Positions 31,370 to 53,252 of a stretch of 64,000 bases of DNA are shown here, in pieces; position 1 is the first letter of the stretch; each line of letters starts with the position of its first letter. The stretch comes from Eledone cirrhosa (taxonomy: Eukaryota), in assembly GCA_964016885.1 (NCBI GenBank), contig OZ024754.1, positions 23,560,001-23,624,000 on the forward strand, in the 5' to 3' direction. Made by a program: the position numbers and the translations under genes. Below the pieces are notes generated by a model, which searched no databases, was not told the origin of the DNA, and saw only the letters and a list, made by a program, of their open reading frames with translations.

Positions 31370-33172
31370 TATATAGTAATAATAATAAATTTGAAGACTA
31401 AAATCCAAAGAGGGCTCGAAAAGGACCGTAGAGCAAATATAGTAAATTTTTTATAGAAATACCATTAAAATTTCTTACTCTACGACTCCTAACCTTGTAC
31501 ATAACATCACAGCTTCAAATTTAGCTAAATTACCTAGCCGTAGGAACACGTGCAACCCTGTAGCTAGTACTAACTGTAATTGTAGGAATCGAATTTGACT
31601 GCCCCCTATCCGGGAAATGTCTCTCTAGTAACATTGTCTACAAATGTAAAGTTGAAACACCCACGTCCTGTAGGGCCTACATAGGGTTAACTGCCAATAT
31701 AATTCAAGCAGCGTCTTTACATGCATACCCATTCTTTTCTTAACCCTTTAAGAAGGAATATGACGTCACTTTCAGCTTATATCTGGAGTCTAAAAGACAA
31801 CCACACCCAATAGCTAAGGCTAGATCGTATAACGGAAATAAAAGACCATGTGACATCTCAAACAAAAAAATCTGAGGCAATTTCGGCTTAAATTGCACAA
31901 AACTTTCCTGTATTTCAGCCCCACATTATACCCTAACGGATAGTACGAACTATACGCGGATATTTAACGTCTTGATGTGGTAGTTAAGTATATGTTATGT
32001 TTATACCATTACTTATTTGTATAGGTAAGTATATATAACCTGTATGTTTTGTGAAGGTACGTATACTTTCTCGTACGTATATTTGCTTGTATATGTTATA
32101 GGCGTATATATTATATTATATATACTGGTACATGTGCATATGGTTATGTGTGTACGTGAGTTCTGCGTCTGTGTGTCTATGGGGGTTTGTACGTATGTAG
32201 GGTGTGTGTGTATGTGTACTTTGTGTTTTGGTTGACGTACGTTTAGCGTACATATGTGTATGTGTGTGCGCGCGTTATATACGTATTTATGTGTGTATAT
32301 TTATATACGTTTATATAATTATATGTATACACACACACACAAATATATATATATCTTATATGTATTTTTATGTGTTTGGTGTATACGTTCGTATGTGTGC
32401 GGGTACAGGCGTTGCGTGGGTTCTGTATGTGCGTGCGTGTTTTTTGTGTTCGTGCTTGATTTTGCATACCCATGGCGGGTGTTTTCGCGTATGCTGTGTA
32501 GTATATGGATGCGTGCATGTATATATTTAATTTTTGTTGATTTCAATTACCTCTGTAAATTATTTACATTTTTCTTAACTCTGAAGCCGAGAATCATTCG
32601 GTTTCCTAAATAGGATTTTAGTCTACGACTTCAGTTATACCATAAACCTTGTTTTGTCTTTGCGTGTAATTGTTCTTAGCACTCCACATAATGACGTATT
32701 ATCTTCGTTTTTCCGTTCATTTCCAGAGAACGTCTCCACGAACCACCCAATAGAATATTAGTCTTCGACTTCATTTATACCATAAACGTGGTTTTGTCTT
32801 TGCGTGTAATTGTTTTCACCGCTCCAAATAATTGTTTCTACTTTAGGCATAAGGCCAGCAATTACCCAGTGCATTACTGGTACTTTATTTTATCGACCCC
32901 GTAAGGATGAAATGCAAAGTCAACCTCGGCGGGATTTGAACTCAGATCGTAAAGGGACTTAACTATGGTGGAAAGCATGGCCCTTCGTTTTTTTCCGTTC
33001 TTTGCCAGGGAACGTTTCCACGAACCAAAGTATCGTCTTCCTATCTTCCTTCGGTTGCAACGTTTTTCGAAATATTTACTTCTGCGTTCACAGATTGATT
33101 TTTTTAGTTTCAGAAGATCCCGTTAAGGGTGAAAGCAGCGATTCTTTGCTTAAACTTTAATCTCTTATTTTA
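31370..33172 (+). mobile_element. 5'-truncated PLE family A (inverted tail, GIY-YIG remnant, pLTR; SINE at 32829-32983 minus)
   Basis: Colinear with 3440-4735 and 335-735. Confidence 0.9.
33106..33156 (+). ncRNA. Family A hammerhead variant (CAGAAGA core)
   Basis: agttt CAGAAGA tccc gttaa gggt GAAA gca..tgc TT aaact. Confidence 0.7.
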
Positions 33173-33226
33173 ATATATATATATATATATATATATATAT
33201 ATATATATATATATATATATATATAT

Positions 33227-33527
33227 CTAAGGCGGGTAAAATTCCCGAGATCCATGGACGAGTTCTCTCCAGCGGTCTCTGTCCCTCATTATCGCTGCCA
33301 TATCCTGCATCTCCAACAGACCAGTGTCTGTCCTTAGGGCATCAACATATGTTAACCTTGGTCTTCCTCTTCTAGTGTGTCCATGTAGGGGCTTCCAAAG
33401 GAGCACTGAGTGCAATGTCAACTCTGGATGTCGGTGAGCATGTCCAGCCAACCTCAATCTCCTCTGTGTCACTTTTGAGCTGACTTTTGGGATGCTCCCA
33501 TACAGCTCTGAGTTTTTCATCCTCAGT
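33227..33527 (-). mobile_element. RTE LINE 3' end
   Basis: [29 protein letters not shown], lying between (TA)n tracts. Confidence 0.88.
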
Positions 33528-33764
33528 GTATATATATATATATATATATATATATATATATATATATATATATATATATATATATATATATATATATATA
33601 TATATATATATATATATATATTTATATATTTATATATATATATATATATATATATATATATATATATATATATATATATATATATATATATATATATATA
33701 TATATTTATATATTTATATATATGTATATATATACACACCGAGAGAGATATATATTTATATATA

Positions 33765-49942: not shown

Positions 49943-49993
49943 AGTTTAAGCAAAGAATCGCTGCTTTCACCCTTAACGGGATCTTCTGAAACT
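49943..49993 (-). ncRNA. Family A hammerhead variant (CAGAAGA core)
   Basis: Reverse complement of the 33106-33156 motif. Confidence 0.7.
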
Positions 49994-52900
49994 AACAAAG
50001 TCAATCTGTAAACGCAGAACTGGATATTTCAAAAAACGTTGCAACCGGAGGAAGACAGGAAGACGATACTTTGGTTCGTGGAAACGTTCGCTGGCGAAGA
50101 ACGGGAAAAAAAACGAATAATACGTCATTAATAGGAGCGGTGAAAAACAATTACGCGCAAAGACAGAACCACGTTTATGGTATAAAAGAGGTCGTAGACT
50201 AATGTTCCCTTAGGTGGTGCATAGAGACGTTCTCTGGCAATGAACGACAAAACGAAGATAATACGTCATATGTGGAGCGTGGAGAACAATAGCACGCAAA
50301 GACAAAACCACGTAAATGGCATAGCAGAAGTCGTAGACTAAAATTCTAACTAGGAGACCAAATGAATCTCCGCTACAGAGTTAAGAACAAAGTAAATAAA
50401 TACAATACAGAAGTAATAAATAAATACATACACGCAAACAAAAACGTACATACACAAGCACACGCAAAACCTTACCATAGGTATACAAAACCACGCACAT
50501 ATAAATATGTGTGTGTGTGTATGCGTGTATACAAATAAATAAATAATTATATAAACGTATATAAATAAATAAATACGTATATAACAAGCGCACACACATA
50601 CCTACATATAAATACACGAATGTTCGGAGACGTAAGTCAACTAAAACAAGAAGTACACATATACACACACCCACCATACGTACGAACCTACATAATCACA
50701 CAGAATATATAAAATGATACGCCATAGCAATCAATTATACGTACGAGAAGGTATACGTACCTTCACAAAACATACGGGTAGTATATACTTACCTATGCAA
50801 ATAAGTAAAGGAATAAACAAAACATATACTTAGCTCCCACATCAAGACGTAAAATATCCACGTATAGATCGTACTATCCGTTAGGGTATAACGTGGGGCT
50901 GTAATACAGGAAAGTTTTGTGCAATTTATGTTTACAAGCCGAAATTGCCTCAGATTTTTTGTTTAAGATGTGGTCTGCGGCGTAGAGTATTTCCAGGGCC
51001 TCAGCGGCGCAGAGGTCACATGGTCTTTTATTTCCGTTATACTAGGATCTCCCAGTGTAACTTATATTGGGTGTGGTTGTCTTTTAGACTCCAGATATAA
51101 GCTGAAAGTGACGTCATATTCCTTCTTAGAGGGTAACGAAAAGAATGGGTATGCATGTAAAGACGCTGCTTGAAACTATTGGCGGTTAACCCTATGTAGG
51201 CCCTACGGAACGTGGGTGTTACAACCTTACATTTGTAGACAATGTTACTAGAGAGGCATTTCCCGGATAGGGGGCAATCAGCCCGATTCCTACAATTACA
51301 GTTAGTACTAACTACAGGGTTGCACGTGTTCCTACGGCTAGGTAGTTTAGCTAGATTTGAAGCTGTGATGTTATGTGCAAGGTTAGGAGTCGTAGAGTAA
51401 GAAATTTTAATAGTATTTCTATTAAAAATTTTACTATATTTATGTGTAGGGGGAAAATGCTTCGTAATAAGGGAAAGAAAGATCTTAGCTAATGGTGTGG
51501 CCACCTCCATATTATATGGTGGGTTATACCAACAAATGCGACGGGATCTATTTCTTCTAGGTCTATTTTCGTACTCTGTATATGCTACCTTATCGACAAA
51601 TCCACTTCGAGCAAGAGCTTCATTGTAATAAGTGGAATGGTCGTTGAAAATACGCTCGTTGGTGGAAAGACGGGAAAGCCTCAACGAAACGTTTCATACC
51701 AGGTTCTTGGTTATGCTGGCAGGATGGTTGGAATGCTTACTTATGTAATTAAGCGTATCATTCGGCTTTCTATACGGGTAATACAACCCATTCAATAAAT
51801 TGAGGGTAACATCGAGGTAGTTAACGACTGAGAGATTGGCCTCAACCTGTATAGAGAGGTTGAAGCCTTTAAAGAAGGCTGTGAGTTCTTTTCTGAACCT
51901 GTCGCAAGCACGAGGTCCGCACTTAGTCATGGTCAAAAGACCATCGTCACGGTACAAACCACCGCCCGCGTTGGGGAATTCGTCCTTGATAGAGAAAAGA
52001 AGGAAAAGGCCAATAAGATCAGTAACCTCCGCAGAGTCACTGGCGCCCATACTCACGTCGAATGGGGTACTATTGGATTTTTTTATCCAAATAGAGTCGT
52101 CGAAATTAATCACCGACTTTCGGGCATTGAGGATGACATCAACTTCGAAATCCTTAACCACTGTGAGTGTTTTAGCGAAATTGATAGCTCTAAGGAGAAG
52201 TGGTAAAGTGATGGAGGAGTAGTAATTGTTGATGTCGAATTGGATAAAACGGCAATGTTCCTTGTTACATATGCCGTTGAACCAATCAATCACCGCGAAA
52301 GAATTGTTCCACAGTGCAAGAGGGGCCAAACTTCTAATTTCAGGTATAATTCTATCAAGAATCGTTTTACTAAGTTTACCTAAATCGGACTTTGTAGGAT
52401 AGGTAAGTATATACTACCCGTATGTTTTGTGAAGGTACATATACCTTCTCGTACGTATAATTGATTGCTATGGCGTATCATTTTATATATTCTGTGTGAT
52501 TATGTAGGTTCGTACGTATGGTGGGTGTGTGTATATGTGTACTTCTTGTTTTAGTTGACTTACGTCTCCGAACATTCGTGTATTTATATGTAGGTATGTG
52601 TGTGCGCTTGTTATATACGTATTTATTTATTTATATACGTTTATATAATTATTTATTTATTTGTATACACGCATACACACACACACATATTTATATGTGC
52701 GTGGTTTTGTATACCTATGGTAAGGTTTTGCGTATGCTGGTGTATGTACGTTTTTGTTTGCGTGTATGTATTTATTTATTACTTCTGTATTGTATTTATT
52801 TACTTTGTTCTTAACTCTGTAGCGGAGATTCATTTGGTCTCCTAGTTAGAATTTTAGTCTACGACTTCTGCTATACCATTTACGTGGTTTTGTCGTTGCG

Positions 52901-53201
52901 TGCTATTGTTCTCCACGCTCCACATATGACGTATTATCTTCGTTTTTTCGTTCATTTCCAGAGAACGTCTCTATGCACCACCTAAGAGTACATTAGTCTA
53001 CGACCTCTTTTATACCATAAACGTGGTTCTGTCTTTGCGCGTAATTGTTTTTCACCGCTCCTATTAATGACGTATTATTCGTTTTTTTTCCCGTTCTTCG
53101 CCAGCGAACGTTTCCACGAACCAAAGTATCGTCTTCCTGTCTTCCTCCGGTTGCAACGTTTTTTGAAATATCCAGTTCTGCGTTTACAGATTGACTTTGT
53201 T

Positions 53202-53252
53202 AGTTTCAGAAGATCCCGTTAAGGGTGAAAGCAGCAATTCTTTGCTTAAACT
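53202..53252 (+). ncRNA. Family A hammerhead variant (CAGAAGA core)
   Basis: Same motif as 33106-33156. Confidence 0.7.

Follow-up and report, generated by a model that had tools for sequence, protein, structure and literature searches.

Can a hammerhead ribozyme keep its place in a mobile element after a letter of its catalytic core has changed? The Penelope-like elements (PLEs) of the family described here, family A, carry A in place of U at position 4 of the core (U4A), which then reads CAGAAGA. What hammerheads do for PLEs is at stake: insertion in vitro can do without cleavage, yet PLEs as a group keep the motif. Fixation, in an abundant family, of a core change that should do harm makes for a natural experiment. 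Should family A cleave, position 4 of the hammerhead consensus would have to be widened and annotation descriptors relaxed; should it not, the success of the family would show that PLEs need the fold and not the chemistry. We favour, with a probability of roughly 55%, an attenuated type I hammerhead that would fold normally and cut slowly.

The window analysed here (64,000 nucleotides of Eledone cirrhosa, contig OZ024754.1) holds three such hammerheads: at 33090..33165 (plus strand), at 49934..50009 (minus strand, the 3' end of the main element) and at 53186..53261 (plus strand, in an inverted arm). Each forms a three-way junction with helix I open. The first-pass annotation had given CAGAAGA at 33106, 49943 (minus) and 53202; the core is real, and those positions mark the outer edge of proximal helix I. 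C3 lies at 33111(+), 49988(-) and 53207(+), and A4 at 33112, 49987 and 53208; the first core spans 33111-33117. As had been claimed, helices I–III, the GAAA that contains G12 A13 A14, and the CUU site are intact at all three, as is A15.1-U16.1. U17 of this NUH triplet is 33151, 49948 or 53247, and the cut is predicted after it.

Proximal helix I and helix III have 5 bp each, one pair of helix III being G-U. Helix II has 3 bp and opens with a U10.1-U11.1 mismatch in place of the consensus G10.1-C11.1 (or R-Y) pair. Past a 7-nt U-rich bulge, helix I resumes for a distal 7–9 bp (7 bp in the 33090..33165 copy). Neither the mismatch nor distal helix I figured in the first-pass annotation. Loop II is GUUAA and fits RNnA, a loop 2 motif (PMC2632901), while the U-rich bulge sits in helix I; the fit is one of sequence. 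Because helix III has 5 bp and its loop is non-palindromic, the motif probably has no need of a dimer. Dimeric PLE hammerhead variants were reportedly described by Lunse et al. in 2017, and may include position-4 variants.

The family A fold costs 4.0–4.6 kcal/mol; for 68 canonical relatives the median is 5.0, and family A falls within their range. A strict CUGANGA descriptor would miss the family, as was predicted. A descriptor that accepts any letter at position 4 finds 8 sites with U4 and 3 with A4 in the window, 11 in all, where 100 block-wise dinucleotide shuffles average 0.06 per window. A custom covariance model made from 15 canonical relatives gives family A just 15.5 bits (E 0.08); its alignment keeps every core position, helix I and helix II in register. 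Rfam gave no hammerhead match in 53150-53272, nor any for the window among the 150 of 227 matches listed, canonical sites included. A likeness to Rfam CRISPR-DR24 (14.7 bits against a gathering score of 35, E 1.4) was judged chance.

The host is a PLE with one open reading frame (ORF), ordered reverse transcriptase (RT) then C-terminal endonuclease. The RT part (51694..52413, minus) is 5'-truncated, has a YRDD motif and closes at an in-frame stop. In the same frame follow a CxCX5C linker and a GIY-YIG-type endonuclease (51037..51693, minus), broken near the end. The 3' UTR/pLTR region (49919..50800, minus) contains an internal duplication of ~127 bp and carries the hammerhead ~25 nt before the element's terminus, the pLTR place that had been expected; a tail extension follows. 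An inverted, 5'-truncated arm (52399..53276, plus) ends in (TA)n and lacks the tail; 49919-50796 and 52399-53276 are 98.9% identical, as the two arms of one insertion. Insertion preference for (TA)n, inverted arm and tail are thus all present, and loose ends in the contigs of run X1 agree.

The ORF has 141 longer homologues, the best 120 of which are 37–62% identical. The linker (CNCRNRADC in the window) is conserved across their alignment. A CxxC plus CxH pattern near the ORF end is found in the homologues and lies out of frame in the window copy. N-terminal RWK/DKT motifs occur in the homologues, including the nearest, P0092 (RWR, DKT); the window copies are 5'-truncated. Selenocysteine at the TGA between RT and endonuclease was set aside, as homologues have ordinary residues there (arginine in P0092) and the copy has further breaks. 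Judged by these clade features, the sequence is that of a Hydra-clade PLE.

A second, diverged family A insertion (31435..33180, plus) runs from the endonuclease part to the 3' end, is split at about 32827-32981, where a short interspersed repeat lies, and terminates in (TA)n ~25 nt after the predicted cut at 33151. A 5'-truncated insertion at 335..742 (plus) bears a broken hammerhead (649..718, plus). Here too the first-pass core, given at ~670, is real (CAGAAGA at 670-676), but a 6-nt deletion has taken out GAAA. The remaining copies contribute no core: the RT-endonuclease-UTR copy at 2494..4743 (plus) stops short of the hammerhead, and a short 5'-truncated one at 9610..9671 (plus), inserted in (TA)n, starts at A9 without the 5' core half and is uninformative on position 4. 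The claim of three copies with the same variant holds for the variant and not for the count, as 49988 and 53207 are arms of one insertion. With GAAA lost at 670, there are therefore three independent insertions, two of them intact.

Is A4 fixed? All four window cores have it, as does run X1, and the other five fixed core letters match the consensus. Among 11,589 contigs of X1 the same variant recurs in thousands; no non-A letter reaches 2% at position 53208, and no alternative letter does so anywhere in 53200-53222. A4 is moreover common to window copies ~5–6% apart in the ORF and ~12% apart in the UTR. These data uphold the view that decay is unlikely, and read as a family trait rather than damage to a single copy. 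G8 and G12 are also intact. A cross-species search yielded 0 reads in X24, 30 contigs in X13 and 1 contig in X18, which resembles trace material rather than other hosts, and viral contigs yielded no relatives.

The hammerhead fold has changed less than the sequence on either side of it. Sites variable at 2% or more in X1 make up 1 of 55 paired or core positions, against 5 of 21 in loop and bulge (p=0.005) and 14 of 112 elsewhere (p=0.02), with position classes drawn after the fold was seen; against upstream positions only, p=0.09. Between window copies, hammerhead identity is 73/76 and 68/70, against 352/403 and 273/307 in adjacent UTR (p=0.03 and 0.04). Neither contig depths nor window copies are independent in these statistics. 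Constraint on the unpaired core alone was not significant (0/13 against 14/112 variable, p=0.36).

Among the closest known systems are the hammerheads of Hydra-clade PLEs (Craig et al. 2021, PMC8557442, File S2). Like family A, they are type I, sit close to the 3' end of a PLE that has a C-terminal endonuclease and is inserted in (TA)n, have a short helix II, sometimes have U17, and occur with an inverted 5'-truncated arm and a one-sided tail. U10.1-U11.1 is found in 14 of the 26 published rows. However, all 26 have U4 where family A has A4. In family A, helix III and its loop are also longer (17 nt from A15.1 to U16.1) and begin with A-G, not A-C. We rejected identity with the published Hydra-1_Obim: its hammerhead differs, and two short family A motifs are absent from that supplement.

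Natural core variants have been described before. According to two reports (Perreault et al. 2011, PMC3088659; PMC4209133), a natural U4C lowers activity in vitro but leaves viroids infectious, no mismatch is tolerated better than U10.1-U11.1, and Schistosoma PLEs have U3-A8. These are single departures, with activity reduced but sometimes sufficient; family A, by contrast, is a high-copy retroelement family in which the change has become fixed with nothing to compensate for it. We found no report on hammerhead U4A. Neither U4A nor CAGAUGA nor CAGAAGA was found in the accessible texts or supplements on published variants, whose gapped alignments and figures could hide them. Within this searched literature, the U4A hammerhead appears new.

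How could such a change be tolerated? A4 would weaken U4's U-turn contact with the A6-N7 phosphate and so slow the reaction. Helix I, being extended and carrying a U-rich bulge, may dock on loop II and partly buffer the loss, possibly helped by the element's protein. Because complete-ended copies run ~25 nt beyond the cut site, the reverse-transcribed RNA would be uncut, or re-joined at that site. The Poseidon PLE of Anolis (Frangieh et al. 2024, PMC11167929) offers a precedent: it shares with family A a PLE hammerhead, the tail signature and reverse transcription of RNA reaching past the cut site. Its hammerhead is protein-assisted; in vitro, insertion draws mainly on uncleaved RNA and is unaffected by catalytic mutations. 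Poseidon belongs to another clade, however, and has a canonical core of measured activity, whereas family A is known from its sequence. Slow cutting may be cheap for the element, perhaps even helpful, and the change could then fix in an abundant family. Against attenuation, canonical cores in all published Hydra rows and in 33 of the 41 clusters analysed here indicate that it is not needed in general. Moreover, a mutational scan of a type III ribozyme found all CUGA-region single mutants low, with no rescue but C3G/G8C (PMC9901934; we did not find the U4A value itself). One of three window insertions lacks GAAA, and swaps of the L017/L018 type are other routes of core change.

The strongest rival, which we hold less probable, is a dead ribozyme carried along. 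A single U4A mutation in a master copy would have put an end to cleavage in an element that has no need of it, the helices being kept for a 3'-structure role (protein binding, RT initiation) or too little time having elapsed. The scan and the insertion assays just cited both suit this reading, as do the proliferation of Naiad PLEs without canonical hammerheads and the non-significant core-only constraint. Nor is fixation of A4 proof of activity, as every daughter inherits a mutation of its master copy and cleavage is dispensable for insertion in vitro. Yet all other core letters are unchanged, family-wide at the 2% level and across copies 5–12% apart, and other lineages change position 4 recurrently, with no credible single change at G5, A9, G12, A13 or A14, a bias not expected of random decay.

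Full activity, with tertiary contacts or protein compensating so that A4 cuts about as fast as U4, is unlikely. Extended helix I with its RNnA loop, fixation in an abundant family, and a relative (L042) with U4A plus A6U and a 679-aa open frame speak for it; against it, CUGA mutants are low even in a tertiary-stabilised ribozyme (PMC9901934), and A4 is seen in 0 of 26 published rows and only 1 of 41 clusters. Given the general weakness of CUGA mutants, and since PLEs insert from uncleaved RNA in vitro, an attenuated or dead ribozyme seems likelier than a fully active one. Chance likeness or post-insertion decay is very improbable: the missing Rfam match and the low custom-model score speak for it, and it is largely refuted by X1 fixation, the shuffles and the model's register, along with the expected position and the Hydra-type U10.1-U11.1.

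A survey of 93 related loci gave five credible core variants, of which four alter position 4, the most often changed core position. Two of these pair the change with A6U in elements with intact ORFs: L042, and L070 (U4C), which sits on a long branch. In a tree made by a quick method without named reference or outgroup sequences, the position-4 changes of three ORF-linked lineages fall in three separate places, and a monophyletic 'relaxed' subclade was rejected on this ground. The variant count leaves out L002+133 (an alternative register of a canonical site) and the double changes L003-3219 and L027-1663, put down to chance or decay (background 0.4 per pass). U10.1-U11.1 recurs in 17 of 51 clusters, a count without L048 and L071, which lie inside ORFs. 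These loci lend independent but modest support to the first-pass idea that position 4 is relaxed. Its own example, a U4C hammerhead at 20168, fails: this CCGATGA has no GAAA in the next 70 nt, neither descriptors nor covariance model call it, and no second copy exists in the window.

A bolder proposal, which we regard as doubtful, is that PLEs tune the hammerhead down via position 4. A4, along with U4A/A6U and U4C/A6U in two unrelated intact elements, would be working alternative U-turns giving slow, protein-triggered cleavage that spares the RT-starting 3' end. If so, family A would hold the first active hammerhead with U4A found in nature, and strict motif searches would be missing whole transposon families. 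A simpler role for A4, stabilising an inhibitory hairpin with UGAAA, was rejected: two copies do show this hairpin in their minimum-energy folds, but U at position 4 shifts the fold cost by just -0.4, -0.3 and +1.6 kcal/mol.

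The three CAGAAGA sites of the first-pass annotation are present as described, with hammerhead core position C3 at 33111 (+), 49988 (−) and 53207 (+). In each, proximal helix I, helix II and helix III run to 5, 3 and 5 bp; helix II carries the loop GUUAA, and a U10.1–U11.1 mismatch, GAAA and a CUU triplet are all present. In constrained folds helix I continues distally for another 9 bp (7 in the copy at 33090) after a U-rich bulge of 7 nt in its 5′ strand. With position 4 unconstrained, a descriptor search of the window yields 11 sites, eight with U4 and the three of family A with A4 (shuffled background 0.06 per window, 100 shuffles). 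However, the sites at 49.9 and 53.2 kb belong to a single insertion, whose two arms match at 98.9% over 878 bp, and the copy at 670 has the A4 core but lacks GAAA. The window thus holds three independent insertions with A4, two of them with the full core. The supposed U4C hammerhead at 20168 was rejected; there is no GAAA in 70 nt.

The motif is carried by a Penelope-like element (PLE) whose features agree with the Hydra clade as described in the available text of PMC8557442. The SINE in this DNA suggests that the animal host is a cephalopod. Every family A copy in the window is broken. Pfam gives no useful match for either part of its protein, for which 141 longer homologues were found; in a tree it sits on a long branch with the homologue P0092 as sole companion. 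The hammerhead lies about 25 nt from the 3′ terminus. Directly upstream of the hammerhead, the UTR carries a tandem duplication of about 127 bp, 77% identical (50072–50341, 52854–53123). A dispersed short repeat family has one copy inserted in a family A UTR (32827–32981) and others at 17570–17761, 18131–18322, 19145–19282, 25196–25391, 27904–28095 and 59064–59184.

Is A4 fixed, as first proposed? Among 11,589 contigs of sequencing run X1 aligned to 53095–53272 at 80% likeness or more, no alternative letter reaches 2% of depth across 53200–53222, A4 included. Contigs lose rare variants and their depth is not copy number, so this describes the dominant state rather than every copy. Three other runs gave 0, 30 and 1 records, which do not amount to a cross-species test. 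Window copies that differ by about 5–6% in the ORF and by about 12% in the UTR share A4, which is therefore older than that split.

The fold is conserved. Counting sites with at least 2% variation in X1 (53236, where the reference has a private letter, set aside), 1/55 paired or core positions vary, against 5/21 in bulge and loop (p=0.005), 9/91 upstream (p=0.09) and 14/112 for these combined (p=0.02); the unpaired core alone (0/13) is not significant (p=0.36). Between window copies, identity is 73/76 in the hammerhead versus 352/403 in the UTR (p=0.03), and 68/70 versus 273/307 (p=0.04, a 6-nt deletion excluded). These p values are indications only, because position classes were set after the fold was known and the data points are non-independent.

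In related loci U4 is a strong rule, and position 4 is nevertheless the most variable core position, which lends modest support to the earlier suggestion that it is relaxed. In the published table of PMC8557442, U4 is found in 26/26 Hydra rows. We scanned 93 loci: 15 from genome contigs and 78 from metagenomes, the latter taken from among the 80 top-ranking of 513 stretches, with similarity to the PLE protein P0007, not to family A, as the criterion. Of 99 calls made by the sense-strand scan, spread over 73 loci, 96 have U4. A stricter two-strand scan (background 0.4 per pass), which family A itself would fail with its longer helix III, made 100 calls, which fall into 41 clusters; 33 of these clusters have a fully canonical core. 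Three of its eight variant calls were discarded, one as an alternative register and two as chance. Four of the five retained change position 4: U4A+A6U at L042:2165–2225 (+), U4C+A6U at L070:2960–3015 (+), and single U4C changes in neighbouring PLE-type hammerheads at L042:2422–2467 (−) and L055:2161–2207 (+). The double changes lie in Hydra-like elements, one contig each, shortly downstream of stop-free frames of 679 aa (L042) and 865 aa (L070); on the tree neither groups with the other or with family A. Credible A6 changes occur only in these two, each alongside a position-4 change, hinting that positions 4 and 6 may be coupled there. The fifth variant is a compensatory C3G/G8C swap, a pair known from mutagenesis; natural swapped cores occur in PLE-type hammerheads at L017:2765 (−) and L018:4044–4087 (+). 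Animal-type PLEs also appear within bacterial genome bins (L079–L092), most likely through host contamination of the assemblies.

We hypothesize, with a probability of roughly 0.55, that the family A hammerhead is an attenuated ribozyme. A4 would slow it, some activity being retained through peripheral contacts and perhaps the element's protein. In the available text of PMC3088659, U4 contacts the A6-N7 phosphate, a U4C occurring in nature slows the reaction strongly in vitro while still supporting infectivity, and U10.1–U11.1 is the best tolerated mismatch. Hammerheads of metazoan PLEs show weak activity in vitro (PMC4209133, in part), and the Anolis PLE ribozyme requires protein (PMC11167929, in part). 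Loop 2 is RNnA in most natural hammerheads (PMC2632901, in part). Family A copies reaching the 3′ end extend about 25 nt beyond the predicted cut site, implying a template left uncut, or joined again, at that point; slow cutting may be cheap or useful for an element obliged to copy through that site.

A catalytically dead motif is a serious but less probable reading. CUGA-turn mutations give low activity, with C3G/G8C the sole rescue, in the portion of PMC9901934 available, which yields no specific value for U4A, and insertion is unaffected by catalytic mutants in that of PMC11167929. Full activity is unlikely, and an artefact is barely credible. Available portions of a retrozyme preprint, PMC11014351 and PMC6155905 hold nothing further on position 4.

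By position and anatomy the motif would descend from Hydra-clade PLE hammerheads and work alike, but it departs from their canonical core at position 4, and we therefore file it as a variant. When aligned to a custom model built from 15 canonical relatives, it falls in register but scores weakly (15.5 bits, E 0.08). Rfam does not report it, a literature search for hammerhead and U4A, which does not reach subscription literature, returned no match, and U4A motif strings are absent from the supplementary files searched. A subscription paper reportedly treats dimeric PLE hammerhead variants. The variant core is real, shared across family A and apparently undescribed; both the ribozyme and the transposon clade are already known. 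A CRISPR-DR24 likeness of the motif's 5′ half (53203–53232) was judged to be chance (E 1.4, far below gathering, no array).

Elsewhere the window holds at least seven further hammerhead families whose cores keep the canonical U4 (16178, 16896/7817, 18771, 37951, 40417, 61998(−), 60393(−)), none among the Rfam matches listed. Several terminate near (TA)n, and 16896/7817 has the U10.1–U11.1 architecture of family A. Further model matches lie at 61668–61727, 62572–62631, 37651–37714 and 12534–12581. A Helitron Rep/Pif1 helicase ORF (41970–47767 (−), 1291 aa) contains a 1.37-kb internal duplication.
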